Below are positions 1 to 15,776 of a DNA stretch of 56,703 bases, piece by piece (the stretch's first letter is position 1; each line of letters opens with the position of its first letter). The stretch spans positions 1 through 56,703 of the forward strand of contig DASVEG010000023.1 in assembly GCA_036380695.1 (NCBI GenBank). The letters run 5' to 3'. The position numbers were made by a program, and so were the translations under genes. The notes under the pieces are model-generated. The model was given only the letters and a program-made list of their open reading frames with translations, searched no databases and was not told the origin of the DNA. The stretch is from Acidimicrobiales bacterium. Its GTDB lineage: Bacteria > Actinomycetota > Acidimicrobiia > Acidimicrobiales > CADCTF01.

Positions 1-72
1 CTCAACGGTTCGTGTCTTCCGACACCGCTCTGCTTCACACGCGACTCCGAGGCCACGCGAACATGGACCGGT

Positions 73-984
73 GTGGTCGCATCCGACAGCGCGGCCTTCG
101 GGAAAGAGGATCAGCGGAATGGTGCACAGACGATGGATCCAAGGCTGAGGAGCCTTCACGCGCTGGGCACGTCGATCGCGAACTCGTATCGAGACACTGC
201 TGCCGCAGCCATACTGTGCGGCTCCGTTCGACGAGGCACGCCAGACGAGTATTCGGACGTGGACCTTACGATCCTCTACGAGACGGTCACCGGAGTCGCG
301 GCCGCACACACGCGACGACCCGCGAGTGCCGTACTGCTCCGGCAGCAGGAGTCGGACTCCTACGGAATCGTCGAGACATTTGTGGTCGAGCGCACGAGGG
401 TTGACGTCCACCATCTTCCTCTGGCCACGGCGCGACGCGATGTGCAAGCGGTCGTGGCCGCGGACACGGCTGCTGCGCTGAATGACCAACGGCAGGGACT
501 GTGCGCCGAGCTCGCCGAGGCTGACGCAATCTTCGGTGGCTCTGTCGTGGAGGAGCTCAGGCGGCCGCTCCGCCCTTATCCGGCAAGGCTCGGTGTCGCG
601 ATGATCAAGGCACATGCCGAGCTTCCCGGACGATGGATGCTTGTTCGCGATCTCCAGAGAGATGACCTCGCCGCTTTCTACCGGGGCGTGATCGAAATCG
701 AGCGCCGCCTTCTCGGGCTGCTCCTGGGGCTGAATCGCGTGTATCACCCGCCGAACCTGAAAGCGATCGCGCAAGTCTGTGTCGCGTTCCGGGCGGCGCC
801 GCTGGACCTGGCCAGTCGTTTGCAACGCGCACTATCCGACCCTCCACGCTTCGGCCTCGCGACCCTGGACTCGCTGGTTGCCGAGACAGCGAGCTTGGAG
901 GGCGCACCGACTGCGGAGTTCAAACGAACTGCCGCCACCTACTTCGCGATTCCGGACTGGGTCATGGGCTCGGATGCGCCGTAG
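73..984 (+). CDS. nucleotidyltransferase-domain protein (Pol-beta superfamily) with ~200-aa helical C-terminal region
   Basis: Long ORF with the NTase signature CGSVRRGTPDEYSDVDLTILYE (G-S...D-x-D). Start uncertain: GTG 73 or ATG 133. Confidence 0.7.
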   Translation: MVASDSAAFGKEDQRNGAQTMDPRLRSLHALGTSIANSYRDTAAAAILCGSVRRGTPDEYSDVDLTILYETVTGVAAAHTRRPASAVLLRQQESDSYGIVETFVVERTRVDVHHLPLATARRDVQAVVAADTAAALNDQRQGLCAELAEADAIFGGSVVEELRRPLRPYPARLGVAMIKAHAELPGRWMLVRDLQRDDLAAFYRGVIEIERRLLGLLLGLNRVYHPPNLKAIAQVCVAFRAAPLDLASRLQRALSDPPRFGLATLDSLVAETASLEGAPTAEFKRTAATYFAIPDWVMGSDAP

Positions 985-1078
985 GTCGTCGACGTCGGCA
1001 ATCGCCGTCGCGGCAATTCAGCCGCGGCAGCCGTACCGCCGATACCCCGGATCGCTTAGCGATTAGCTGGCAACACGC

Positions 1079-1241
1079 CTTCAGCTGGTCTCATTGGGTC
1101 CCGGCGGGGCGGCTCGTCTTCAGCTGGTCTCATTGGGTCCCGGCGGGGCGGCTCGTCTTCAGCTGGTCTCATTGGGTCGCGGCGGGGCGGCTCGTCTTCG
1201 GCTGGTCTCATTGGGTCCCGGCGGGGCGGCTCGTCTTCAGC
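1079..1241. repeat. 39-bp tandem repeat, 4 full units plus a 7-nt partial unit
   Basis: Unit cttcagctggtctcattgggtcccggcggggcggctcgt at 1079, 1118, 1157 (1 substitution) and 1196 (1 substitution), then partial cttcagc. Lies between two convergent genes. Confidence 0.95.
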
Positions 1242-1303
1242 GGGCGGCATGGGTCGACCTTACTTTCGAGCTCGTGTGCAGAACCGAGTCATCAGTTTGC
1301 GGA

Positions 1304-1945
1304 TCACATCGTGGCTAGGCCGACCGAGAGATGAAGCGACGGCACGTCCCCGCCGAACGTCCGATGCACAACGCCACGTGGCACGTAGAGCATGTCCCCC
1401 TCTCCGAGCAGCACGCGACCTCCCGAGGCGGCGTCACCGCCGAGCTCCCATGTCTTCCGCCCTGCGGCCTGCAGCGCGATTACATCGTGAGCATCGTCAT
1501 GCCAGGGGAAACCCTGGCATGGGCCAGCCGGCGACGGTGGCGTGAAGTACGCGTTGATGCCGACGCGAGCCCCGAGCTTCACCTCGAGCTCACGACGAAA
1601 GACGCCTACGGGCGGGACGAGGCTGTCGATCGCGACCACCAACATTGTGTACCCGTCCAGGAGCGCACCGCGTACGACACTCCGTCCATAGGTGCGGCCC
1701 CTCCTTGGGAGTGCGCGCACTCCTTGGTCTTCATCCTGCGTTTGAACGAACCACGCGTCCGAGGTGGCGAGGCCGTCATCGACCAGCCGCCAAATGTCCG
1801 TCTCGGACAACAGCGTGTTGAATAGGTGTCGACCGCCTCGCGCAACAGCCACTGGCGAACCGATCACCTGGTCACCGTCGGCGCGCGCAAACTCCGCCAC
1901 AACGTGCACCACATCGGCGAGTGCAACGGGACCCGTGCGATTCAT
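1304..1945 (-). CDS. cupin/JmjC-like (cupin-4) domain protein, short form
   Basis: ORF with barrel motifs FPWHDDAHDVIALQAAGRKTW, GDMLYVPRGVVH and SLHLSVG. The protein stops right after the barrel, so the usual C-terminal domain appears absent. Confidence 0.6.
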   Translation of the reverse strand: MNRTGPVALADVVHVVAEFARADGDQVIGSPVAVARGGRHLFNTLLSETDIWRLVDDGLATSDAWFVQTQDEDQGVRALPRRGRTYGRSVVRGALLDGYTMLVVAIDSLVPPVGVFRRELEVKLGARVGINAYFTPPSPAGPCQGFPWHDDAHDVIALQAAGRKTWELGGDAASGGRVLLGEGDMLYVPRGVVHRTFGGDVPSLHLSVGLATM

Positions 1946-1978
1946 TGAACCACCGACCGTAGGGTCGCGGCGTCATGA

Positions 1979-2455
1979 AGGGCTCCCGAGCGCAATCGGC
2001 ACGAGTTGCGTGAGCAGGACTTAACGATCGTGCCGGGGTTCCTCAACTCCGATGAGCTGCAGGCGCCCCGGGAGGCACTGTAGCTGCACGACCTCCGACC
2101 CGAGGAGTACTTCGCCGACCCGCTAGCCCATGAGCAGTACACCCGAAGCCAGTTCGGCGGGGTTCGCATGGTCCTGTGGCCGTCGTGGGACCTGAACCGG
2201 CTGGCGTTCCACCCCGACCCGGCGGACCCGGCCGAGCGCTTCCTCGGATCGGCCGACGTTCCTCTGGAACGCGGAGCCATGGGCGAAATATGCGGGCCAT
2301 CGACAACGAGCAGCTGCACCATCGCGACGACGTGAACCACACACTCGTGGTGCCACACGGAGCCGGGCCACGCCCGGCGAACCGAAAGTTCGGCTTCCCT
2401 GCAATCGCGGACCACTACTGGGACGGACAGACGCTCACCGACGTGCAGTGTCGCC
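1979..2455 (+). pseudogene. phytanoyl-CoA dioxygenase (PhyH)-like gene remnant
   Basis: Reads IVPGFLNSDELQAPREAL-TAG(2081)-LHDLRPEEYFADP...LAFHPD...FLGSADVP, then LWNAEPWAKYA in a second frame and AIDNEQLHHRDDVNHTLVVP in a third. That is one in-frame stop and two frame switches. The 3' end abuts repeat copy A. Confidence 0.5.
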
Positions 2456-2488
2456 CCCTCCCCCCCCGGCTCGGATGGACATGTCGCC

Positions 2489-2550
2489 CTACTCGACCAA
2501 CGGCAGCGTGACGTCCATGTAGGTAAGCGGCGAGTCGCCCCTCCGACACG
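2489..2550 (-). repeat. recombinase-3'-end repeat, copy A (full site, inverted orientation)
   Basis: The reverse complement reads cgtgtcggaggggcgactcgccgcttacctacatggacgtcacgctgccgttggtcgagtag. The first 50 nt are identical to copy B. Confidence 0.9.
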
Positions 2551-3310
2551 ACGTTTGCTACATGGGATTCCGCCCGTCACCCGGACGGATCGGCTGGTCG
2601 GATCGAACGTCATCTGGATACCCAGCTGTTCCAGCAGCCGGTTCCGTCCTGTCGCATCGGCGCCGCGTAGAGCGGCCGCGGCGGCGCTCAGGTCAGCCAG
2701 GAGCACCGCTGCTTCGTCCGCGGCAGACGGCGCTGTAGCGCCGGTCTGACCAACTGCACCGGCGAGGACCTGCTGCGCGATGGCTCGCTCCGCCGCCGTT
2801 TCCGAGATCCACTTGCCGATGACCGATGCGTCATCCGCCGTCATCGAGGGCGCGCCTGTAGTTGGCCAGCCGAACGTCGCACTGAGCGATTGTCTCCCGC
2901 GCCTGTCCCGCCCTGTCGGTCGAGTTCACGTCCGACGCCAACACTTCAAGCCCCGCGATGACTGCGGCCCTCGTGTCCTCGATGTGGTCGTCGTCGAACG
3001 CCCTCTCGAGCCGTGGCTCGACAACCTTCAGGATGAGGGACTCGCGGACGTAAACCGTCTTCGGATGGCAGCCGTTCGTCGTGGCGTACTCGATCGGGTA
3101 ACGACAGCGGTAGTAGGCCGCGCCGTTGTTCCACGTGCCTTCCATCCGTCTCTCGCACAGGCCGCACCTCATGACCCGCCGGAGCACGTATGGACGTGGT
3201 GTCGCGCGCGCCTTGCGAACCGTTGCGACGGGTGGCGCGACCGTGATCCTCGACTGCACGGCCTCCCACTCCTCGACCGTGATGATCGGTTCGTGGCTCA
3301 TCGACCTCGC
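2489..3310 (-). pseudogene. large serine recombinase, 5'-truncated and frameshifted
   Basis: Minus-strand ORFs 2831-3376 and 1942-2844 together read HEPIITVEEWEAVQ, CGLCERRMEG...YYRC (Zn ribbon), a coiled coil, then ...VGGATRRL. No resolvase catalytic domain lies upstream. Frame switch near 2840. Confidence 0.75.
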
Positions 3311-3467
3311 GGACGCACCCGTCGAGCTAGCGCCGTCGTTGCGGCGAGCCGTGGGTTGGGCGGCCGCCCGCCTCATTGCGCAAGAGCGTGATGGTGCTGA
3401 CCTCCGTCCCGATCGGGACAGCGTTACCCGCTGGCGCTACCCGGCCGAAGGGGTTGGAGCGACCGAC

Positions 3468-4187
3468 ATGCCGCAGGTCGCGCGCCTGTGCCGGTGGGTG
3501 GCCGTGGAGCCGACATCGGCGCGACTGTCTGTAGCTCGCAAGGTCGCCGCCGCTCGGCTAACCGATCCCCTTGTGGCCGGTGAAGCCGTGATCGAAGCGG
3601 CGGAGATCGCTTACCGCCAGACAGTTGACTCGACCGTCCAGCAGGCCCTGGCACGTCAGGCCGAACTTGAGCAGACGTTTCGAGGAATCGATAGTGATCT
3701 CAGTTCCGCCCGGTCGGACCTCGCGAAATCTCTCGATCAGACCGTCCTCCGTGCCGCCGCGGGACTGGTAGCGATCGCAGCGGCCTCGGCGGCTGCCGAA
3801 GAAGGCTCTCCGGGATTCATACGCTTTGGAAGCCTCCTCGTGGCCGGCTACGTGCTCTTCAGTGCCACCGTGGAGTTGGAGGTCGCCCGGCGAGATATCG
3901 ACGGCCGGATCGTCGCGTTCACGGGCGTCCTGGACACGAGAGGGCAGGACCTCGCTCATAGCGCCACCAACAGCCTCAAGGCCTGGCGCGCTCAGCTCAA
4001 GCGACCTGCTCGACTCATCCGCGTGAGCCTCGTTGGGGCCGCTTGTGTCATCGCAGTCGGAGGATTGGTCGCTGCCGAGAATGTCTCGACGGCGTCGACG
4101 GCTCGAACAGGGCGAACAACAACCACGAGCGCGCCCGCGTCGACCTCACCACCAGGGTCAGCAACCACGGCGTCATCCACCCCGTAG
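3468..4187 (+). CDS. hypothetical coiled-coil/membrane protein (about 3 TM segments, Ser/Thr-rich tail)
   Basis: ORF 3126-4187. ATG 3468 is preceded by GGAG 8 nt upstream. GC3 is about 70-75%, lower than in core genes. Earlier start codons overlap the recombinase remnant. Confidence 0.4.
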   Translation: MPQVARLCRWVAVEPTSARLSVARKVAAARLTDPLVAGEAVIEAAEIAYRQTVDSTVQQALARQAELEQTFRGIDSDLSSARSDLAKSLDQTVLRAAAGLVAIAAASAAAEEGSPGFIRFGSLLVAGYVLFSATVELEVARRDIDGRIVAFTGVLDTRGQDLAHSATNSLKAWRAQLKRPARLIRVSLVGAACVIAVGGLVAAENVSTASTARTGRTTTTSAPASTSPPGSATTASSTP

Positions 4188-4266
4188 CCGAGCGCGTCGG
4201 CGAAGGTCACTTCCTCGACGTCGACCCGAGCAACGCCGAACCGTGGGCCCGCGAACGACGCGCGCG

Positions 4267-5361
4267 TCATCGCCAGATCGGGTACCAGGCGTTGAGACGC
4301 TCGCCCCGTCTTACATTGAGATCCATAGCCCTCCTGATCGCGCCTTCCCAATACCCCGGCCCTTGCCAGTGGCAGTAGTCGGCGCCGCCGAGCTTGCCTT
4401 GGGCGGCGCTGGTCGCCCACTCCGCGACGTCTCTAGTCGTGGAGACGGGCGTGAACGACGCGCCGGTCCTGTCTGTGATCTCGCCGGCGACGGCGAGGTT
4501 CCCCGTCGGGACGCCATGCCAATACCTGTAGCCCGCGCCAATGTCTTGCTCCACTTGAGCCAGCGATTCAGAAAAGCCGAGATACGCGACCCCGTCTCGG
4601 AACGTCAGACCGCAGAGATACTCGTCGGTCGAGGTCGTCACTTTCGCGGCGATCCAGCGGAAGTCTCCGCCGGGAGGACGTGCATCGAGCCACCGGCGTA
4701 GCGCATCCTCACTCCCGACTCGGTCGGCGAAGGTGTGGATGGGCTCATCCGGGTGGATCCGGTCCATCGTCCCCCACTGGACGCGAAGCGGAAAGCCCGT
4801 CCACTCGCCAGTTTCATCTCGGTGTACCAGTTCTGGGCAGATCTCCGCGAAGAATTGACACGCGTCGAGAAGCGGCTCGAGCGTTGGTCTGCATGCGACG
4901 AGCTGGTCGTAGTGGGGCTTGAGAGCTCGGGTGGGCTCGTGAAGGAGAACGTGGACATCGGGCGGTACGCCTCTCCAATGCGACGAGGTGCGGAAACCCA
5001 GCCCGAGGTTGTTGCCGAAAACCGCATCTGGCTCCGGCACCACTGGGTGAAGAAGGTGTTGGCCGACGTTGCGTACGTACCGGAACGCTTCGATCGTTCG
5101 GGCGCCGTGATCGCCACGCGCGAGGCGCGCCTCGAAGAGGATGCGGTAGTCGGGGGTCGCGAGCTCAGTTCGCATCACGTCATTGAGCTTCTGTATGAAT
5201 GCCACAGCAGAGCGAACTGGAGTCGTGTAGTCGTCGGGATCCGCGATGAAGCCCGCCGTTCGACGGTGGTAGTCAGCGATCGACACCTGCACGTCGCGCA
5301 TCGCGGACCGCATCGGCTCAATCTCATCGGGCTGCAGCTGGACGACGGTCGGACCTGTCAT
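4267..5361 (-). CDS. hypothetical protein, 364 aa, no recognisable domain
   Basis: Long clean ORF with non-repetitive, protein-like composition. Convergent with 3468-4187. Confidence 0.65.
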   Translation of the reverse strand: MTGPTVVQLQPDEIEPMRSAMRDVQVSIADYHRRTAGFIADPDDYTTPVRSAVAFIQKLNDVMRTELATPDYRILFEARLARGDHGARTIEAFRYVRNVGQHLLHPVVPEPDAVFGNNLGLGFRTSSHWRGVPPDVHVLLHEPTRALKPHYDQLVACRPTLEPLLDACQFFAEICPELVHRDETGEWTGFPLRVQWGTMDRIHPDEPIHTFADRVGSEDALRRWLDARPPGGDFRWIAAKVTTSTDEYLCGLTFRDGVAYLGFSESLAQVEQDIGAGYRYWHGVPTGNLAVAGEITDRTGASFTPVSTTRDVAEWATSAAQGKLGGADYCHWQGPGYWEGAIRRAMDLNVRRGERLNAWYPIWR

Positions 5362-5459
5362 CTAGTCAGCTTCACGTCGGGGCCGGGTTGTTCATCATCA
5401 CCCCAAGCCTCGTCGATCGCCGTGACCTCTGTGGCCGAAAGCCATCGATCGGCCGCTGA

Positions 5460-6026
5460 CCAAAGTCTGGGCGCGCCAGGCACGCGCCCCAAGCGATCGA
5501 CGCATCACCGGATGTCCGCGCGCTACTACCACCGGCAAAGGGCGGCCTGCTCAATCGCACCGTGGCGTGGCGAGCCTTCGGCGTGCTGGGGCCGACCGTA
5601 ACCGTGATGTCTATGGCCGCCTTTCTGGCGACGTTCGTTGCTGCCGGCTGGCGCCCCGGTGACCCGTTCCCGGGCGGCGACGTTGCCGCGGCGGCATCCG
5701 GCGCCGCCTTCATGACCGTGGTGATCGCGCAGAGCGCGAACGCGTTCGCCTGTCGCGGCTCCTCGCGGTGGGCGGGCGCGCTCGGGTGGACGACGAACCA
5801 CTTGCTCCCGCCCGCCGCGGCGATCGAGCTGGTGTTCGCGTTGTCGGTCATCGCCGTGCCCGCGCTCGCGACGCAGCTCGACCACCGGCTGCCGACCCCC
5901 GTCGGGTGGAGTGTCGCGCTCGCGTCGGGCGTCGTCGTGCTGGTAGCCGATGCCGCCGACAAGCGCCGCCGCGGTCGGTCGCGGCTCCGGTCCGCGCGAC
6001 GAGATGCCGCGCCGCCCCGTCCGTAG
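5460..6026 (+). pseudogene. P-type ATPase C-terminal fragment (5'-truncated paralogue)
   Basis: Frame opens after TGA 5457. Reads ...LLNRTVAWRAFGVLGP...FMTVVIAQSANAFACRGS...WSVALASGVVVLVADAADKRRR, typical of the last TM helices of cation ATPases. It is not the same gene as 13305-15776. Confidence 0.65.
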
Positions 6027-6428
6027 GCATCGGACGCCTCCGATCCCGCGGCCGAAGCCGCTCGTCAGACGATCGTGGAGGCTCGACGGAAGATCGAGCG
6101 GCACATGGCGGCGTTGGAGGCGGGCGTCGATCCCGCGCTCGTCGCCGAGCGGACGCGGAAGGCACAGTCGGAGATCGTCGCCGCTGAGGCGATCCTCAAT
6201 TCGACCCCCGACGCGCCCGCGCCGCTCACGGTCGACGAGGTGGTGGCAACGCTCGAAGCGCTCCGCAACGTCCCGCGGTTGCTCGAGGTCAGCGGACCCC
6301 GCGATCCGGGCCGAGGTCTACGCATCGCTCGGTATCACGCTGACCTACCGCCGGGAGGGTGATGCCGAGTACATCCAGGTCAGCGCACAGATCGGGGGCG
6401 TCGACCTGGAGCGTGTCGGAGGGGCGAC
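5902..6428 (+). repeat. left copy of a ~510-530-bp inverted duplication (ATPase tail plus recombinase 3' remnant)
   Basis: Matches the reverse complement of 54661-55170. Shared translations are PxGWSVALASGVVVLVADAADKRRR and MEARRKIERH.AALEAGVD.ALVAERTR.AQSE. About 90% similar, with indels. Confidence 0.85.
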
Positions 6429-6473
6429 TCGCCGCTTACCTACATGGACGTCACGCTGCCGGTGGCTGAGTAG
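6040..6473 (+). pseudogene. large serine recombinase 3' remnant (coiled-coil and C-terminus only), frameshifted
   Basis: Reads EARRKIERHMAALEAGVDPALVAERTRKAQSEIVAAEAIL...VATLEALRNVPRLLE, then in a second frame ADPAIRAEVYASLGITLTYRREGDAEYIQVSAQIGGVDLERVGGATRRL. Confidence 0.75.
6412..6473 (+). repeat. recombinase-3'-end repeat, copy B (full site)
   Basis: cgtgtcggaggggcgactcgccgcttacctacatggacgtcacgctgccggtggctgagtag. 50/50 nt identical to copy A, although the upstream coding DNA differs. Confidence 0.9.
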
Positions 6474-6493
6474 TAGCGACCCGTGACGATCTC

Positions 6494-6518
6494 CAACTGC
6501 TGTCTAGGACAGCAGTTG
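6494..6518. terminator. perfect 11-bp stem / 3-nt loop hairpin at the 3' end of the NACHT gene
   Basis: caactgctgtc-tag-gacagcagttg. The NACHT stop codon (6504-6506) spans the last stem base and two loop bases. TTT follows on the plus strand. Confidence 0.5.
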
Positions 6519-9500
6519 TTTCGACACCGGACTCGCGGGGTCGATCATCCACGCAACAACTTGCTCCCACTCCGCTGCAGGGAACGTCTGACCGGCGTCG
6601 GCCAGAAGTCGTCGCGCGTTCCAGCGCTCAGATCCACCGATCAATCCGATCAGGGCATGAGCGAGGCCGGTCTTGATGTACGCGTCCATGACATCGCCAG
6701 CCGACGGGATGTCAGTCGATGTCATGTGTCTTCGCAGCTCCAAAGATGCGGCGTGTGCGCGTGACGGGTCAATCGCGGCGAGAGCGCGGGCGATGTCCGC
6801 TGCGGCCCACGCATCGGTTGCACTTCGCAAGGCATCTTCGAGCCTGCGAGACACGACCTTCGCGAGTGCGGGCGCGAGTGTCACTACGAGCCGAGCCGGC
6901 TCGGAGATAGACCAGGAGTCAGAGTCGGCGATCGCAGCCGTCAGTTCGTTCACCACCTCGCCGTGCAAGGTCGGATCGAGTCGAACGGCTAGTTCCGCAT
7001 AGCCAGCGATTGCGCGTCGATCGATGGCGTGGAGCGAGTCAACTAGCTGCCGGGCTATTGCCGGGCTTGCGACGTCAAGCCTGGCGGCAGCGCGACCGGC
7101 TCGGAACGCGTACTCGGCGGGCATCGCCGCCGCGACCTGCTCGAGACGCGTCGCGACATCGCGGGTACCGCGAGCTTCGAGCTCGGCCTCGAGCTCCAAC
7201 AGCCGGATTAGGTCGCCGCCCACCGCGGCGGCGCTCCGCCCCTGAACCGCCTGAACGAGCCTCTCGTTGTACGAGGGGTCGAGCTCTCTTATCGCACGGC
7301 TGATCTCCGAGAACTGTTTGAGCGGCCGCGCCTCCATGTGTTGCCACACGACATCGATCGCCTCCCGTAGCCGGCGAGGGGACGAGCGCGCGATGCAGCC
7401 GAGCAGCGACGGGACGTCGACGACGTCCGGGGTCCCGAGACGGGAGATGACGAGATCCACAAGCGGCTCGAAGACTTCGTCAAGCGATTCGTCGATGAGC
7501 GCGGCCATCCCGGCGAAGTCGGACGGCCTCGCGCGACTCATCGCAGACAGGAGCGCCCGCACGGCGTGTTCGGGCATCGGGTCGACTACCGACACGAGCG
7601 CGGTGGCCGTAGTGACGATCCACGTCGTCCCAGCATCGAGCATGCGAACGAGGGTGTCGACGACGTCAGGGAGGCGTCTCGGGTCGAGCTCGACTGCGGT
7701 TATGGCGAGGTCGATGGTCGATGAGTACAAGTCCCTCGACTCGAGGCGGGCGAGAACGGCGCGAACCGACGCCTCGCGGGCGTCCTCACCCAGATCCGCT
7801 ACGACGCGAGCGAGGCTTGTTAGGTAACGCCGCTCGCATTTCGACAGGAGGCCGACGAGTTCCGCCGAGTGTTCGCGAACGAGGGTTTGATCGATCGCCG
7901 CGAGAGCCGCAACGACTTCGGTGATATCGCTGGTCGACGCCGTCGGCTGGGAGCTCAACATGTCGCCTAGCCGCGCGCGAAGAGCAGGAACCGCGGGGTG
8001 GGGCGACCACTGTCGAGTCCGTGCTGCCTCGGCGGCAGTGGCGCTGGCCATCAGTGCTCGTAGTAGTGCCACGCTGTCTTGTCGCCACTCCTCGGGATGC
8101 GACGCAGCCGCAGTCGTGATGAGGAGCTGGCGTACTTCCCCCGCGACTTCGAGTGGACGGTTATCCGCGTCCCCTGGGATCAGGGCCTTGAGAAACGCGT
8201 CCCGGTCAGTTGACTGTGCGACGGCCGAAGGCAGGAGGACAGCCCACGGCTCCCAGAAGAACAGGTGTCGGCGCGCGAGCTCCGCGCGATCCGCCGCCGG
8301 CATCGCGGCCAGGTGCTTCGCCGCGAGGTGTTCTTGAAGGGTGCGATGCAGAAACGCGACCTCTCGATCACCGAGCGGGTCGAGCAACGTCATTGCGATG
8401 CTGCGCTCGTGCTGGGGAAGCGCGTCGAGCGGGGTGATCGCCGGCGAGAGAAGTGACACAGCCTCCTGGAGCGTTGTCCTTCGCGTCGGTTCAGTGGGCG
8501 CCAAAGTCGACCAGGCCACGTCGCTCAGGACGCGCACCCATGACGGCACGCGTCTCGACGCGTCGAGATCGCTCATGCGGGGCGATGCCCGCTCGGTCGC
8601 CTCGCGGAAGAGCATGGCCTCTATCGCGACGTCATACAGCTGCGGAACCGTTGTTGGGACACTCGCGCCTCGACGCAGTGAGTACGCGCACGCTTGCACC
8701 GCGAGGACTGCGAGCAAGGGGACCCGAAGCCCGTCGCCGGCGAGGCGAACTGGCGAGTCCGGAGCGAGGACCACACGCGCGACGTGCGGTACGCCAAGCG
8801 CCCGCGACACTCGGCGAACCAGATTCGCCGCGTGGCTCTCCGACATGTGCTCCAGGCGGCCGACGCTTCGCCCGATTCGCGGTTGCCCGTGCGGCGCAAA
8901 CACTCCTCGTGGTCTCTCAGCGTGGCTCGTTCGACATGTGAGAAGCAGCGACACACGCTCGGAGGACAGCAGCAGCTGAAGGTGCTCCATCAGCAGCTCC
9001 GTACGGGCGGCTTCGTCCCACCCGTCCAATACGACCGTGAGCGGCTGGTCGGCGCGCGCGACGAGTCGTTCGGCACGATCGCGATCCAACCAGGACGATC
9101 TCGAGGGTGACACGAGCGCCCCCCAGAGGTTCGCGGACTCCTCCAACTCCGCGCATCGAGCGAGGAGGGGAATTGACACCGCTTCTACGGGGGCGCCTCG
9201 TTGTAGATCTGCGAGCGCGCGCCGCGCGGTTTCCAAGGCGTGTCTGTGTGCGAGCCACGACTTTCCGCTGCCCGGCGCGGCCTCGATCATCAGCCTTCGG
9301 TGCCTTCGGACGGCATGATCGAATTCGATCGTCTGATCCGAGACCCGCAAGGTTGCTGGTCGGTGGAGCTCATCTAGCGTCGCGTCGAATCCCTGCCTGT
9401 CCGGTAGTGCGCGGAGAAGCCACTCGACTAGCGCGATGAGGTACGAGCGAACCTCGGAAGCGCTGGCGGGAGTTCGCGCAAGCCCTTCGAGCTCACGCGC

Positions 9501-10040
9501 GACGAGCTCCGTGACGCGACGTGCGGACCGCGCACGGATCTCAGCGTGTCGGAGCTGCGGGGCGAACAAGCCGACGTCCAACGCCGCTCCGAACAGAACC
9601 AAGAGGTCGAAGGCGAACTGAAGGCGCTCCGCCTGCTGGAACTCGTGGGACACGGAGGCATTCAGGTCCAGAGCGCCGGCGATCGCGTGGACGAGATTCG
9701 CCATCACGGCCTCATCGATTAGACCTGGAGCGGTCTCGACCCAGACGTCCGCCAGATCCTCCACGGCTGTCTCGCTCTGCAGTACTTGCTCGAGCCTCTG
9801 ACGTTCCTCGGGCGCTAGCGAGGTTCGCGTTGTCCGGCCGATCGCTGGCCGCTCATCGCCGTTCGTTTGCAGCCAGTCGGCAGCTGTGTCGAGTGCGGCG
9901 CTGATCCTGTCAAGTCGGGTTGCCTCACGCCTCTTCTGCGAGAACCCGGCGCGCATTTGCTCAAGCGACAGCTCCAGTAGCGCTCCGCCTATCGCCCAAC
10001 CGAGTTCCGCCGACATCGCGAGCCAGGGTAGATGGCGCAC
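6504..10040 (-). CDS. NACHT/STAND P-loop NTPase with C-terminal HEAT/ARM-like helical repeats and an uncharacterised N-terminal ~250 aa
   Basis: 1178-aa ORF. Walker A is IEAAPGSGKS (about 9258-9290). Walker B is LTVVLDGWDEA. The C-terminal half has repeated helical units with recurring xLDP motifs. GTG start at 10040 (ATG alternative at 10016). Confidence 0.85.
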   Translation of the reverse strand: MRHLPWLAMSAELGWAIGGALLELSLEQMRAGFSQKRREATRLDRISAALDTAADWLQTNGDERPAIGRTTRTSLAPEERQRLEQVLQSETAVEDLADVWVETAPGLIDEAVMANLVHAIAGALDLNASVSHEFQQAERLQFAFDLLVLFGAALDVGLFAPQLRHAEIRARSARRVTELVARELEGLARTPASASEVRSYLIALVEWLLRALPDRQGFDATLDELHRPATLRVSDQTIEFDHAVRRHRRLMIEAAPGSGKSWLAHRHALETARRALADLQRGAPVEAVSIPLLARCAELEESANLWGALVSPSRSSWLDRDRAERLVARADQPLTVVLDGWDEAARTELLMEHLQLLLSSERVSLLLTCRTSHAERPRGVFAPHGQPRIGRSVGRLEHMSESHAANLVRRVSRALGVPHVARVVLAPDSPVRLAGDGLRVPLLAVLAVQACAYSLRRGASVPTTVPQLYDVAIEAMLFREATERASPRMSDLDASRRVPSWVRVLSDVAWSTLAPTEPTRRTTLQEAVSLLSPAITPLDALPQHERSIAMTLLDPLGDREVAFLHRTLQEHLAAKHLAAMPAADRAELARRHLFFWEPWAVLLPSAVAQSTDRDAFLKALIPGDADNRPLEVAGEVRQLLITTAAASHPEEWRQDSVALLRALMASATAAEAARTRQWSPHPAVPALRARLGDMLSSQPTASTSDITEVVAALAAIDQTLVREHSAELVGLLSKCERRYLTSLARVVADLGEDAREASVRAVLARLESRDLYSSTIDLAITAVELDPRRLPDVVDTLVRMLDAGTTWIVTTATALVSVVDPMPEHAVRALLSAMSRARPSDFAGMAALIDESLDEVFEPLVDLVISRLGTPDVVDVPSLLGCIARSSPRRLREAIDVVWQHMEARPLKQFSEISRAIRELDPSYNERLVQAVQGRSAAAVGGDLIRLLELEAELEARGTRDVATRLEQVAAAMPAEYAFRAGRAAARLDVASPAIARQLVDSLHAIDRRAIAGYAELAVRLDPTLHGEVVNELTAAIADSDSWSISEPARLVVTLAPALAKVVSRRLEDALRSATDAWAAADIARALAAIDPSRAHAASLELRRHMTSTDIPSAGDVMDAYIKTGLAHALIGLIGGSERWNARRLLADAGQTFPAAEWEQVVAWMIDPASPVSKQLLS

Positions 10041-10136
10041 TTGGCCGATTTGTTCGGCCGTTAGGCCCTCTGTCCTCGGCCTGTTGGTTATGCGTCCGCG
10101 CCCAGGCGACGGTCGCCGCGGGGAGGTCCAGACTTC

Positions 10137-10189
10137 GGGGCGACTCGCCGATTACCTACATGGACCTCAAGCTGCCCCTGGTCGAGTAG
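10137..10189 (+). repeat. recombinase-3'-end repeat, copy C (core plus right arm, 5 mismatches)
   Basis: ggggcgactcgccgattacctacatggacctcaagctgcccctggtcgagtag. The upstream flank is unrelated to copies A and B. Confidence 0.8.
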
Positions 10190-10203
10190 CTCCGACGATG
10201 CCG

Positions 10204-10647
10204 CTACACGAACTCGATGCTGGCCGCTTCGTACTTGGCCGGACCCGTCAGACCCGCCCTCTCGAACGACTGAAGCCGATAGTTCTCAGCCGCCGTCACG
10301 AGCGCGACCTCGTCGAGGCGCGGAAGCTCGGCCAGCCACGCCTCGGCCGTCTGGAGACGTAGCAAATCCTCGGCGGCTAACGACCAAACATGATCGCAGT
10401 GCGGAGCATCGGGCGAGTCGTTCCTTGGGACAGGCCGCTCTTCGGCAGCGCAACGGTCGTAGACCGCTTGCACAGCCTTCGAGCGGCGCTCGACACTGTC
10501 CCGCCTGTTCGTGTTCCGCTTGCGAAGTTGGTCCTTGACTACTCGGATCGCCACGAGCGCCTCGAGCTCTCCCGACGTCACGGCTCGGGCGAGAGCTGCG
10601 CCAAGTGCTGCGAATCGGGAGTCACGAAGCGGGGGCTCAGGTGTCAT
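10204..10647 (-). CDS. hypothetical 147-aa protein co-transcribed with the HNH protein (possible immunity or partner protein)
   Basis: ATG 10647 (or GTG 10662) lies 18 nt (or 3 nt) after the upstream stop at 10665. Contains PHCDHVWS...VALVTAAENYRL, faintly reminiscent of His-Me/DUF1524-type motifs. Confidence 0.6.
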   Translation of the reverse strand: MTPEPPLRDSRFAALGAALARAVTSGELEALVAIRVVKDQLRKRNTNRRDSVERRSKAVQAVYDRCAAEERPVPRNDSPDAPHCDHVWSLAAEDLLRLQTAEAWLAELPRLDEVALVTAAENYRLQSFERAGLTGPAKYEAASIEFV

Positions 10648-10664
10648 CTGCTCGTCACTCACGC

Positions 10665-11942
10665 TCAAGCCCCCACACCCCGCGTGTGCGCGACCGCCGG
10701 CCACACCCGCAGGACGTGAGCGGACGGACGGTCGGGATCGATGGCGTCGAGACGAGCCTCGTAGCTCTCGTAGTCGGGAATGAACCGCACCGACGCCCAT
10801 CGACGACGGTCGCTGCGAATCTTGCGGCGTTTGGGAGTCAGCTCATAGACGCCCCTGACGCCGCTGCGCCCGAGTTCGTACGCGGCGATCGCCGGGGATG
10901 CAGCACCCTTGCCGACCGCGGTGAGGTCGAAGCCATTGCCGTGTCCAGCACGCCATGACTGGCGGACGAGCTCTCCTACGGAGCCAGCGACCACGCCCCC
11001 GACGATCATGCCGCCGATCATCGGGATCGCGACCGGCGTGGCTCCAGCAGCGCCGAGGCCGACGAACGCGACAGGGGTGGCGGCGTTGGCGATAGCAAGG
11101 CCAGCCCCCCAGCCCGCCAGAGCGCCGACTCCTCCGATGCCGCCCGCGGCGGCAATGGGCACCGCGTCGAAGCCCTCGCGCCGACCCTCGTGGAGGTCCC
11201 ACGCCTGGATGCCCGTCTCCACAGCCGCCCCAACGACAATGCCGATGACGGTCGCGCCAACGGCGCCGCCGATGCTGAAGCGGCGGATGTTGTAGAACTC
11301 GCCATTGCGCTCGATCAGCCGCATGCCGTTGTCGGGAACGAGCCGACCGTCGGGCCCGATGCGGACACCTTCGTGCCGCTCGACGAAGACCTCGATGGCA
11401 TTGCGGCGCGCGATGTTCGCAGCCGGGTCGGCGGCCCGAAGGTTGGACAGGTCGATAGATGAGCCGCCGTGAGAGTGCGGAACTGCATGGTCGATGTGGA
11501 AGTTGTCGAACGCGATGGGCCTGCCGGTCAGCCAGCACTTGCCACCCGCCGCCTCGTAAACCGCGCGGCGGATCGCCTCGTTCCAGCCACCGCGAATCGG
11601 GTCGACGCCGACGCCTTGAAGGACTTCGACGACCAGCCCGTCGACGGGGATGCCCCATCTGCCGAACTCAGCTGCGTAAATCACATTGGCCTCGGCAAGC
11701 AGGGCGCCGTAGCCCCCGCCTCCCGCTGCAGCTGCGCTCGGGACAAGCGCGGGATCGATGCCCAACCGAGTTGCAGAGCGCCTCGCTTCGATCTCAGCCG
11801 GGTCGGGCGGTGAGATGCGGATGAAGAGATCCGCGGCGACGGATCCTACGGTCGTGGTTGATGGTTGGACGTCGATCATGGGAGGCGAGCTCTTCGAGCT
11901 TGATCGGTAGGCCTCCCGCGTACCGTGAGGCCTAACCAGCAT
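10665..11942 (-). CDS. HNH endonuclease fused to a glycine-zipper-rich membrane region
   Basis: ATG 11942 is preceded by CGGAGGATTA. HNH core is CWLTGRPIAFDNFHIDHAVPHSHGGSSIDLSNLRAADPAANIARRN (about 11400-11510), followed by about 110 aa of GxxxG/A hydrophobic repeats. The track ORF start at 12242 runs through repeat D and is rejected. Confidence 0.75.
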   Translation of the reverse strand: MLVRPHGTREAYRSSSKSSPPMIDVQPSTTTVGSVAADLFIRISPPDPAEIEARRSATRLGIDPALVPSAAAAGGGGYGALLAEANVIYAAEFGRWGIPVDGLVVEVLQGVGVDPIRGGWNEAIRRAVYEAAGGKCWLTGRPIAFDNFHIDHAVPHSHGGSSIDLSNLRAADPAANIARRNAIEVFVERHEGVRIGPDGRLVPDNGMRLIERNGEFYNIRRFSIGGAVGATVIGIVVGAAVETGIQAWDLHEGRREGFDAVPIAAAGGIGGVGALAGWGAGLAIANAATPVAFVGLGAAGATPVAIPMIGGMIVGGVVAGSVGELVRQSWRAGHGNGFDLTAVGKGAASPAIAAYELGRSGVRGVYELTPKRRKIRSDRRRWASVRFIPDYESYEARLDAIDPDRPSAHVLRVWPAVAHTRGVGA

Positions 11943-12003
11943 TAATCCTCCGTACCGTGGGCCGCGGCGGGTGGGGTCGAGCCCCACGGGAGACCGAGAC
12001 CTC

Positions 12004-12050
12004 GGGGGGACTCGCCGCTTACCTACATGGACGTCACGCTGCCGTTGATC
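12004..12050 (+). repeat. recombinase-3'-end repeat, copy D (core plus right arm)
   Basis: ggggggactcgccgcttacctacatggacgtcacgctgccgttgatc. 38 consecutive nt are identical to copy A. The terminal stop codon is lost. Confidence 0.85.
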
Positions 12051-12157
12051 GTCCGTCGAGCACATGGGGGCGCCGCGGGCTCGGCGCCAAGGGCGACGGC
12101 GTGTCGGTACCGAGGTCGAGCGCACACACCGTGCCGGACAGGTGGTCGTCACGACTA

Positions 12158-13304: not shown

Positions 13305-15776
13305 ATGGCCCACGTCGTCGATGTGGCGGACGCGACCGACTCCGGCGGCAGCGACGGGCTCTCCGGTGCCGAGGCGCAGCGACGCCTCGCCGCCGATGGT
13401 CGGAACGAGCTGCCGGAGGCGCGACGGCCGGGCTGGCTGTCGCGCCTCGCGGCGCAACTCCGAGAGCCGCTTTCGCTGCTGCTCGTCGCGGCCGCGGCCC
13501 TGAGCCTTCTCGTCCTCCGGGAGATGACGGAGGGGCTCGCGATCCTCGTCATCGTCGTCCTCGACGCGGTCGTTGGTGCGGTGCAGGCGCACCGCGCGGA
13601 CGACGCGATGGCCGCGCTCCGGGAGCTGACCGCGCCGCTCGCGTCGGTGGTGCGCGATGGCCGCCCGCAGACGATCGCCGCCGCGGACGTCGTCGTGGGG
13701 GATCACGCGCTCGTGGCCGCGGGCGACCGCGTCCCTGCGGACGTTCGCGTCACCGATGCCGCCTCACTGGCATCGGACGAGGCGATCCTGACGGGCGAGT
13801 CGATCCCCGTCGACAAGTCAGTGGGCGACGTGCTGCTCGCGGGCACCCTCGTCGTCCGAGGTCACGGCGGCGGCCACGTCGTCGCGACGGGTGCGCGCAC
13901 GCAACTCGGTGCGATCGCGACGTTCCTGACGGAGGCACCGGAGCCCCCGTTGGCACGGGAGTTGCGCCGCATCGGTTCCTGGATGGCGACCGGCGCGGTC
14001 GCGCTCGGCGTCGTGGTCGTCGCGGTTGCGGTGGTGCGTGGCGACGGGGGCCGCGACTCCCTCCTCGACGGCCTGCTCGGTGGCGTGGCGCTCGCCGTCG
14101 CCGCGATACCGGAAGGCTTGCCCGCCGCGATGACGGCCTCGCTCGCGCTCGGCGCGCAACGCATGGCGCGGCACGGGGCCATCGTGCGAACGCTGACCGC
14201 CATCGAAGCGCTCGGCTCGACCACGGTCCTCTGCGTCGACAAGACCGGCACGCTGACCACCGGGCAACTCGAGGTCGACGACGCGATCCCGGCAGAGCGA
14301 ACGAGTGCCGCCGAAGCAGAGCTCTGGCTCGCGATCCTGCGGTGCAACGACGCGACCGACGGTGGTGTCGACCCCATCGACGTGGCCCTGTTGCGCGCCG
14401 CTGAGGCGCGCGGTCACACACCGATGCTCGGGCGGAGAGTCAGCGAGGAGCCCTTCGAAGCGACGACCCGCCTGATGGCGACGGTGCACGAGTTCGCGGA
14501 CGCGAGGGTGCTGTCGGTGAAGGGCGCACCGGAGGCCGTGTGGGCCAGGTGCGCGGACGGCCCGCAGCTCCGTCGCCTCGACGGGCTCGCCCGTGGCCTC
14601 GCGCAGGCGGGGCGCCGGGTGCTCGCCGTTGCATCCGCAGCGACGGACGACCTGTCGGCACGCGAACTGCAACCGTTGGGGCTCGTCGCGTTCCTCGATC
14701 CGTTGCGGCCGTCCGCGCGCGCGGCGGTGGACGCGTGCAGGCGTGCGGGTATCCGCATTGTCGTCGCGACCGGCGATCACCCCGAGACAGCGGCCGCCAT
14801 CGCGCGTGACGCCGGCCTCGATCCCGACCCCACCGTCATCGGCTCGGAGTTGCGTGATCTCGACCCAGACGAACGCCAGGCGCTTCTCGCTGAGGCCGCA
14901 GTGATCGCCAGGGTCGAGCCGGCCGACAAGGTCGCGCTCGTCGTGGCGCATCGCGCCGCCGGCCATGTCGTCGCGATGACTGGCGATGGCGTGAACGACG
15001 CGCCCGCGCTCCGCCACGCGGACGTCGGCATCGCCGTCGCCGGGGCGGCCGGGACGGACGTCGCCAGGGAGGCCGCCGACATCGTCGTCACGACCGGCGA
15101 CCTCGGCGTGCTCGTCGAGGCCGTGCGCGAGGGCAGGCGGATCTACCGCAACGTGGTCAGCCTCGTGTCGTACCTCCTTGCGGGGAACCTCAGCGAGATC
15201 ATGGTCGTGCTCGGTGGGGTGCTCTTGCTGCAAGACCTGCCCGTGCCGCTCCGGCCGGTGCATCTCCTGTGGATCAACCTGATCACCGACGGGCTGCCCG
15301 CCCTTGCGCTCGGGGTCGACTGGTCGCGCCGAGACGGCCTCGAGTTGCCGCGCCGGGAGCCCGGCACCCACCTGCTCGACCTGGCCCGCCTCCGCCTCCT
15401 CGCCGGCCGCGCGCTCGCCGTCGCTGCCGCAGCGTTGGGTGCGGGCGCATTGGCCGCGCAGATGGGGTGGTCGCCGGGCCGAGTCCAGTCGCAGCTCGTC
15501 GTGACGCTCGTACTCACCCACCTCGTGCTCGCGTACGTGTCTCGCTCGGAGCGGTTCGCGTTCGAGCGCGACTGGTGGAGGAACCGCGCGCTCGCGGCCT
15601 CGGTGTTCGGGTCGGCCGCGATGCAGGTCGTGGTGATGACGGTGCCCGCGCTCGGCGGTTGGCTCGACCTTGCCGCGTTGCCTGTCGCCGGGTGGGCGAT
15701 GGCGGTCGGAGCGTCTGTGCTCGTCGTCTGCGTGATCGATGCCGTCAGGGCGGTTCGGCGGCGCAGGGTGCGCTGA
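13305..15776 (+). CDS. cation-transporting P-type ATPase (HAD-IC, type II-like)
   Basis: CVDKTGTLT phosphorylation motif, [12 protein letters not shown] hinge motif, and multiple TM helices. 823 aa. Confidence 0.9.

Follow-up and report, generated by a model that had tools for sequence, protein, structure and literature searches.

A rare HNH-type nuclease with a glycine- and alanine-rich hydrophobic region in an Acidimicrobiales bacterium: a possible membrane-tethered defense protein

Nucleases that discriminate between self and non-self DNA by means of their location, instead of by its sequence or modification, have only just been recognized, with SNIPE and Epona as examples. SNIPE, a validated anti-phage protein, combines an N-terminal transmembrane (TM) segment with a DUF4041 domain and a C-terminal GIY-YIG nuclease, and it cleaves phage DNA during injection (bioRxiv 10.1101/2025.11.03.685801). 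Its anchoring prevents the cleavage of self DNA and sets the enzyme at the site of DNA entry, and deletion of the TM segment results in a nuclease-dependent toxicity (bioRxiv 10.1101/2025.11.03.685801). Epona, also validated against phages, is encoded in the chromosomal integron of Vibrio cholerae and joins an Mrr_cat nuclease to a holin domain with two TM segments (bioRxiv 10.1101/2024.07.02.601686). Here, we analyze two adjacent genes, called below the large and the small gene, in a 56,703-nucleotide (nt) stretch of DNA from an Acidimicrobiales bacterium of the Actinomycetota (contig DASVEG010000023.1 of assembly GCA_036380695.1); this whole stretch is referred to as the window. An earlier reading of the sequence, the original prediction, had described the pair as an HNH nuclease fused to a glycine-zipper membrane region together with a small partner protein, and had viewed it as a toxin-immunity or abortive-infection module. 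We tentatively suggest instead that the large gene works alone in defense and encodes an HNH DNase tethered to the membrane, an HNH analogue of SNIPE and Epona.

The large gene and the segments of its product are located as follows, with residues numbered from the upstream start codon and lengths in amino acids (aa):

10665..11942, minus strand: large gene, an open reading frame (ORF) of 425 aa that starts at ATG 11942 with a GGAGGA Shine-Dalgarno sequence ahead of it and ends in a TGA at 10665-10667
11879, minus strand: alternative start of the large gene, a conserved ATG that corresponds to M22 and gives a product of 404 aa
11400..11576, minus strand: HNH (beta-beta-alpha-Me) core, residues ~123-181, in which D151, H152, N167 and N176 are present
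11277..11387, minus strand: family-specific linker VERHEGVRIGPDGRLVPDNGMRLIERNGEFYNIRRF, residues 186-222, kept in all family members
10974..11276, minus strand: Gly/Ala-rich hydrophobic helical region, residues 223-323, recognized by its hydropathy and by helices predicted with AlphaFold2 (AF2)
10773..10835, minus strand: basic motif PKRRKIRSDRRRWASVRFIPD, residues 370-390, with nine K/R against two D/E

To judge from its sequence, the large protein is an active-looking HNH DNase of the His-Asn-Asn type. The motif FHIDHAVPHSHGG...NLRAADPAANIARRN aligns with the D-H...N...N residues of the HNH domains of Cas9 and IscB; the core described in the original prediction is present, with these residues intact. 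When the family profile was compared with the Protein Data Bank (PDB), D151-H152, N167 and N176 fell on the catalytic D-H...N...N of the Cas9 HNH domain, and these residues are kept in every family member that possesses the domain. The PDB matches of the profile include the Cas9 HNH structure 8d2k (E 0.0019), the IscB-like 8w2z, and 4h9d; the NCBIfam Cas9d model matches the large protein over the HNH segment of Cas9d (E 1.2e-4), and eight PHROG families of HNH or endonuclease VII proteins match it at E <= 0.005, the best at 1.5e-6. Many HNH families match residues 120-182, 168 matches of the exhaustive search described below being of the HNH-only kind, and the best matches of the segment 120-185 are to the Cas9/IscB-type and free-standing phage HNH domains (PF01844; 8d2k, 8w2z, 4h9d), with which it shares the beta-beta-alpha-Me core, the D-H general base and the two Asn. 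It differs from them in that it falls under the Pfam gathering threshold and has lost the zinc-binding CxxC pairs; a single Cys (C136) is left of the pairs usual in HNH domains.

The part of the protein that follows the core is peculiar to the family. The linker holds most of the family's invariant residues (G192, P203, D204, L209 and G214 are invariant within it), and a low-confidence AF2 model predicts it as four short beta strands. The hydrophobic region that comes next is 24% Gly, 20% Ala and 13% Val, and has three small-xxx-small zipper runs, at residues 226, 273 and 311. Kyte-Doolittle windows of 19 aa exceed 1.6 at residues 223-241 (peak 2.01) and 304-322 (peak 1.97), with a shoulder of 1.46-1.52 at 258-298, and the 64 residues from 260 to 323 contain no D, E, K or R at all, while 34% of them are V, I, L, M, F or W. 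The only charged stretch of the region is the loop 242-259 with its acidic/basic core W248-D259 (WDLHEGRREGFD), and this loop core, WD.H.GRR..D, is kept as far as a homologue of 38% identity. AF2 predicts helices in the region, with a predicted local distance difference test (pLDDT) score of 61-79 for residues 224-275. A less hydrophobic helical stretch then leads to the basic motif, whose consensus P+RR+IR..Q+RW.S..F.PD is found in all the distant members (P0023-P0027). The basic tail noted in the original prediction corresponds to its residues 370-382 (PKRRKIRSDRRRW), which are present as described and kept across the family.

The hydropathy of this region suggests that insertion of the large protein into a membrane is plausible. 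The charges are distributed with four K/R ahead of the first hydrophobic helix, five D/E against two K/R in the loop, and nine K/R in the tail motif; such a layout fits the positive-inside rule if, as predicted, both termini are inside and the TM helices are even in number (four or two). Charge-free hydrophobic stretches of 41-53 residues occur also in P0023 and P0027, and in P0027 the basic motif comes immediately after such a stretch. With the Pfam glycine-zipper modules (Gly-zipper_Omp, Gly-zipper_YMGG, Rick_17kDa_Anti) the region shares the repeated small-xxx-small motifs, here on predicted hydrophobic helices, but its segments are longer and form several helices with a conserved charged loop. 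No Pfam family, glycine-zipper families included, matched the C-terminal regions of four family members even at E <= 10. The Gly/Ala-rich hydrophobic module that the original prediction had called a glycine-zipper membrane region is real, and its embedding in the membrane is plausible.

How does this protein compare with the described fusions of a nuclease to a membrane segment? With SNIPE it shares, by analogy only, a general plan: a single polypeptide, encoded by a stand-alone gene, in which a nuclease is combined with a membrane anchor, in our case a predicted one. Neither DUF4041 nor GIY-YIG is matched by the large protein in Pfam or PADLOC, and there is no homology to SNIPE; the large protein differs in having an internal HNH domain, followed by a multi-helix Gly/Ala-rich region of ~100 aa and the basic motif. 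Epona resembles it both in the fusion of a nuclease to a short TM module and in the placement of a small cassette between recombination-site repeats. However, Epona has a PD-(D/E)xK-type nuclease, a holin-type TM domain, and attC sites with a tyrosine integrase, whereas the large protein has an HNH nuclease and a hydrophobic domain of no assigned class, and the repeats around its gene stem from the 3'-terminal part of a serine-recombinase gene; the two are not homologous. The original prediction had not recognized the combination of a nuclease with such a membrane module as a described architecture. This is essentially true of the present family, which matches nothing in Pfam or PADLOC apart from the HNH core, but it is overstated for nuclease-membrane fusions at large, of which SNIPE and Epona are examples.

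The large-protein family is exceedingly small. A word-indexed homologue search returned two non-self relatives, P0002 (80% identity) and P0003 (76%). An exhaustive HMMER search, which covered 1.84 billion representative proteins, gave 174 matches, six of them at E<1e-10 (P0003 and P0023-P0027), and it is these six, plus P0115, whose similarity extends over linker, hydrophobic region and basic motif. None of the three is covered by the 168 HNH-only matches, and the 51 of these that were read at the level of their sequences also lack all three. The full architecture is present in only ~7 clusters among the 1.84 billion representatives. In a third word-indexed search, with the family profile, Gly/Ala-rich words saturated the candidates and P0115 alone was gained. 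An architecture that unites an HNH domain with a hydrophobic, Gly/Ala-rich region and a basic motif is very rare and essentially undescribed, and with such extreme rarity the family has been missed by homology-based pipelines (Pfam, PADLOC). Among the matches of the exhaustive search, only one unrelated protein, of 215 aa and from a low-GC organism (P0141), has an independent, analogous layout, with a canonical CxxC HNH domain (Pfam E 1e-13) and then a Gly/Ala-rich tail of 48 charge-free residues; it was considered as a phage-borne analogue, but IMG/VR gave only HNH-core matches.

The large gene is under purifying selection, since its dN/dS (the ratio of non-synonymous to synonymous substitution rates) is ~0.26-0.28 against its homologues in the loci L001 (76% identity) and L005 (80%); between those two homologues the value is ~0.35. 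In L005 a stop codon stands at the position that matches ATG 11942, and the ATG common to both sequences is that of the window's M22 (nt 11879). Translation could start at either ATG, and the other results given here are independent of this choice. The same sequence is also found in a separate Logan assembly, in which the two genes are called with products of 425 and 147 aa.

The homology between the window and L005 starts ~12 nt upstream of ATG 11942 and stops at the 3' end of the gene. Because the homology is limited to the gene and no neighbor is kept across the loci of the family, the large gene behaves as a self-contained module, and it is horizontally acquired. The informative contexts are defense or mobile islands, and the conserved pairing for which the original prediction had proposed a survey of homologues did not emerge. 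In the window, the gene lies in an island of low GC content at third codon positions (GC3), beside a gene with a NACHT domain and between recombinase-derived repeats. The locus of P0023 (L017) is a defense island, with a NERD+UvrD helicase (PADLOC C3a187, E 2.9e-75), a McrC-like protein with DUF2357 and PDDEXK_7 domains, and an SBD/EVE protein (PDC-M26A, E 1e-38) as its neighbors. In L001, the gene of P0003 diverges from a gene for a 410-aa protein that matches the PADLOC candidate PDC-M09A (E 4e-23) and capH. The contexts of P0115 (L011) and P0024 (L018-20) are uninformative.

The 410-aa neighbor in L001 (418-1650, minus strand) has an XRE/CapH-like helix-turn-helix, a coiled coil and a Gly/Ala-rich TM region of its own, and the two adjacent Gly/Ala-zipper membrane proteins of that locus could interact. 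A link between this PDC-M09A-like protein and the large protein was considered and rejected: there is no sequence similarity between them, and no homologue of the neighbor in the window.

In the reading that we tentatively favor, the C-terminal half of the large protein would form Gly/Ala-rich hydrophobic helical hairpins that keep the enzyme at or in the cytoplasmic membrane, with the N-terminal nuclease and the C-terminal Arg/Lys-rich motif in the cytoplasm and the conserved acidic loop facing outward. The gene would work alone, as a defense or exclusion nuclease. The tether would hold the nuclease off the chromosome and put it where foreign DNA enters the cell, during phage injection or conjugation, and this localization, perhaps together with the conserved loop and the basic motif, would restrain attack on the chromosome. 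We infer membrane insertion, topology, nuclease activity and a role in defense from hydropathy and a handful of loci. If this interpretation is true, an unrelated HNH version of the location-based nucleases exists with a different and larger membrane module, and the strategy has arisen repeatedly; it would be a compact, single-gene candidate from the Actinomycetota, a phylum whose defense repertoire is poorly sampled. A bolder formulation, about which we are distinctly doubtful, is that the family constitutes a new class of single-gene immunity. The large protein would in that case be an HNH DNase, embedded in the membrane by a Gly/Ala zipper of several helices and of a novel type, and it would destroy the DNA of phages or plasmids as it enters. 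It would be an independent HNH counterpart of SNIPE in high-GC Gram-positives, in which the outward-facing loop WD.H.GRR..D and the inward basic motif couple the sensing of DNA entry to the licensing of the nuclease.

The features of the small gene are the following:

10204..10662 from a GTG (152 aa) or 10204..10647 from an ATG (147 aa), minus strand: small gene, 2 or 17 nt past the TGA of the large gene
10390..10401, minus strand: H88-C-D90-H91, at the end of a predicted beta strand, with H88, D90 and H91 invariant
10279..10287, minus strand: E126-N127-Y128, invariant, at the start of the helix after the second strand

The small protein has 18 homologues (P0005-P0022) of 47-77% identity, which gives a family of 19 with the window member. 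The residues invariant in it include N81, S83, H88, D90, H91, W109, T123, A124, E126, N127 and Y128, and the pattern PHCDHVW...AAENYRL, which had been perceived as faint in the single sequence, turns out to comprise the most conserved stretches of the family. The AF2 model (pLDDT 92.8) begins with three helices; a strand with HCDH at its end comes next, then an insertion of two helices and a second strand, and ENY opens the helix after it. The strands and this helix fall at the positions that an HNH fold would require. When the small family was aligned by hhalign with an alignment of 51 HNH core sequences, the match had a probability of 81% and an E value of 1.2e-5, over just 29 columns that correspond to the helix-G.P....D..H.DH half of the motif. 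A weak PHROG match to an HNH family (phrog_338, E 0.0044) points in the same direction. Against the shallow profile of the large family the probability is an insignificant 5.7%. The small protein matches nothing in Pfam, NCBIfam or PADLOC; its model has no fold match in the PDB, with only uncharacterized phage proteins as matches in BFVD, and its family profile gave only noise against the sequences of the PDB (guanylate kinase, E 0.17). On this moderate evidence, mobile elements seem to carry in the small gene a divergent relative of HNH proteins. Of the roles that the original prediction had left open for its product, a degenerate second nuclease fits best, and that of an immunity or partner protein is not supported, as the pairing is not conserved.

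That the two genes of the window are close together, as had been predicted, is plain from their spacing; it is the generality of the arrangement that fails. In L001, no small gene was found by tblastn downstream of the large-gene homologue, and the next 480 nt are non-coding; in L005/L006 (80% identity), none was found by tblastn in the 210 nt at hand. The original prediction had named unpaired homologues as the outcome that would speak against it, and L001 and L005/L006 are such homologues. The small gene, for its part, is the downstream member of a same-strand pair in every locus examined, at spacings that range from an 11-nt overlap to an 87-nt gap, but with changing upstream partners: a tyrosine integrase (L013; Pfam E 6e-13), an SLFN_AlbA_2 protein (L014) and proteins of 138, 171, 264, 300 and 449 aa without an assigned family. 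No relationship links these seven partners to each other or to the large protein, and recombinases lie near the small gene in L007 (two serine recombinases), L010, L013 and L016. Genes that are selfish or hitch-hike on mobile elements, such as those of free-standing endonucleases, show this pattern; a cognate immunity factor would not. Because its homologues follow many unrelated genes and homologues of the large gene occur without it, the small gene is not a dedicated partner. The tempting toxin-immunity annotation is thereby corrected, and the small gene takes its place in a separate HNH-like family found beside recombinases.

Several results weigh against a membrane-tethered defense enzyme. 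The match of the large protein to Pfam HNH (PF01844; E 0.0023) scores 18.5 bits and so stays under the gathering cut-off of 21.4. The AF2 model of the whole protein, built on a family alignment of nine sequences, has a mean pLDDT of 45 and is unusable. Relatives of the large protein were not found among GTDB species representatives, JGI metagenome contigs or IMG/VR, which makes an enrichment statistic impossible, and the association with defense is based on three informative contexts only. Neither family is in PADLOC: no member of the large or the small family matches a PADLOC v2 model, and the large protein yields only HNH-core noise there (PtuB, REase_II, E 0.02). As for the membrane itself, the Hessa biological scale gives positive sums for all the candidate segments (+2.2 to +7), so that insertion is marginal on that scale, and the branch of P0024, P0025 and P0115 is charged throughout the aligned region, with charge-free segments of only 18-19 residues; a bundle of amphipathic helices is thus another form that the region could take. 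The last two points are also what could be expected of a soluble HNH enzyme. The large protein would then be a mobile element's cytoplasmic nuclease of the ordinary sort, whether homing-like, restriction-like or an accessory of recombination, and its Gly/Ala-rich region would serve as a low-complexity linker or fold into a bundle of helices, soluble or oligomerizing. The closest HNH cores, which come from small free-standing HNH proteins of phages and mobile genetic elements, and the absence of any glycine-zipper Pfam match agree with this as well. We regard it as rather unlikely, however, for a charge-free stretch of 64 residues with its share of large hydrophobic side chains would be very unusual in a soluble domain, two segments lie above the classical Kyte-Doolittle TM threshold, and the flanking charges follow the positive-inside rule.

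If the region is in the membrane, it could be more than a tether. In an abortive infection system with two effectors, the zipper helices, once triggered, would oligomerize into a pore or otherwise disrupt the membrane, and the HNH domain would sense DNA or contribute to its degradation. The small-xxx-small motifs on three helices are compatible with this, TM effectors are common in defense systems and Epona joins a nuclease to a holin-like domain, and the conserved loop WD.H.GRR..D suggests a functional site inside the hydrophobic region. But there is no similarity to pore-forming, holin or glycine-zipper families and no evident sensor domain, and the fully conserved catalytic residues of the HNH domain argue for catalysis rather than sensing; we think such a system quite unlikely. 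Colicin E9 and Im9 are an HNH bacteriocin and its immunity protein, and the window resembles them in that a small gene comes immediately after an HNH DNase gene. A toxin-immunity or toxin-antitoxin pair, with the large protein as a nuclease toxin that the small one neutralizes, would account for two same-strand genes 2-17 nt apart in one common repeat-bounded segment. It is very unlikely nonetheless, in view of the unpaired large genes of L001 and L005/L006 and of a small family that follows an integrase, an SLFN_AlbA_2 protein and five other unrelated genes. The small protein, moreover, is unrelated to known immunity families and itself looks HNH-like. In polymorphic toxins the toxin domain is normally C-terminal, but the HNH domain of the large protein, in this also different from colicin E9, is internal. 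That domain order is wrong, too, for a secreted or contact-dependent antibacterial toxin of a bacteriocin-like kind, whose hydrophobic region would carry the nuclease across the membrane of the target cell. HNH domains are common bacteriocin warheads, and glycine-zipper segments occur in membrane-inserting antibacterial toxins. However, the N-terminus, to judge from the sequence, has neither a signal peptide nor a WXG/LXG or other feature linked to secretion, and neither secretion genes nor a cognate immunity gene are conserved nearby; this last possibility appears highly improbable. A single membrane-tethered HNH DNase with a role in defense is thus the reading that we retain, tentatively, for the large protein.

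The segment that holds the two genes belongs to an island with a history of recombination, in which the following elements were recognized:

2489-2550, minus strand (inverted): repeat copy A, the 3' tail of a truncated gene for a large serine recombinase; the piece next to it, 2831-3376, matches Zn_ribbon_recom
6405-6473, plus strand: repeat copy B, the 3' tail of a frameshifted large serine recombinase fragment (C-terminal part)
10121-10189, plus strand: repeat copy C, an isolated tail, 15 nt past the small gene's stop
11988-12051, plus strand: repeat copy D, an isolated tail 46 nt upstream of ATG 11942, at the junction of island and core
6504-10040, minus strand: NACHT-domain STAND NTPase of 1178 aa (Pfam E 8e-7) with a long helical-repeat C-terminus and no PADLOC match
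5562-6026, plus strand: C-terminal fragment of a P-type cation ATPase, 154 aa, with a core-like GC3 of 0.88, directly upstream of recombinase fragment B
1030-1263: tandem array of a 39-nt unit, CTTCAGCTGGTCTCATTGGGTCCCGGCGGGGCGGCTCGT, in 4.2 near-perfect copies with degenerate flanks

The repeat core of 55-64 nt, GACTCGCCGCTTACCTACATGGACGTCACGCTGCC, has exactly four copies in the window where chance would give 0, and the pair is bounded by two of these, C and D, just as had been noted originally. The 1.8-kb segment between C and D contains the large and the small gene only, and that between B and C only the NACHT gene, which may be an Avs-like defense gene. Every ORF to the left of repeat D has a GC3 of 0.72-0.78, as against 0.88-0.91 on its right, in the genes for an alcohol dehydrogenase and a P-type ATPase (the GC content of the window is 64-73%); because of this difference across it, repeat D is the junction of an acquired island and the core genome. 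The island comprises the left 12 kb (window 1-12051, against the core from 12233 onward) and continues past the contig end.

The repeats may have originated by the accretion of decayed elements in tandem, or by integration into a recombinase gene at its 3' end. Their layout is cassette-like and recalls the defense cassettes of integrons, but without attC structure or an intact recombinase. Integron gene cassettes have an attC-type structured site and depend on an IntI tyrosine integrase, whereas the window repeats show no significant fold (z 0.3 to 1.0) and derive from the 3' end of serine-recombinase ORFs. An identification as attC sites was accordingly rejected. So was an RNA element or terminator: there was no Rfam match, the fold z values of -0.95 to +1.0 include none that is significant, and no terminator or promoter consensus was present. 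The core is absent from GTDB genome representatives and from all the other loci fetched. In the JGI metagenome contigs it has one occurrence, an intergenic half-site on an unrelated contig (L012, 2559-2582, minus strand), which may be an empty or scarred attachment site. A tblastn comparison of the recombinase fragment with plasmids returned one uninformative Streptomyces match.

Two further features of the island lie at some distance from the pair. The ATPase fragment at 5562-6026 is only 26% identical to the intact ATPase encoded at 13305-15776, and it is therefore the remnant of a different, disrupted gene. The array of 39-nt units has a nucleotidyltransferase gene (73-984) on one side and a JmjC/cupin gene (1304-1945) on the other.

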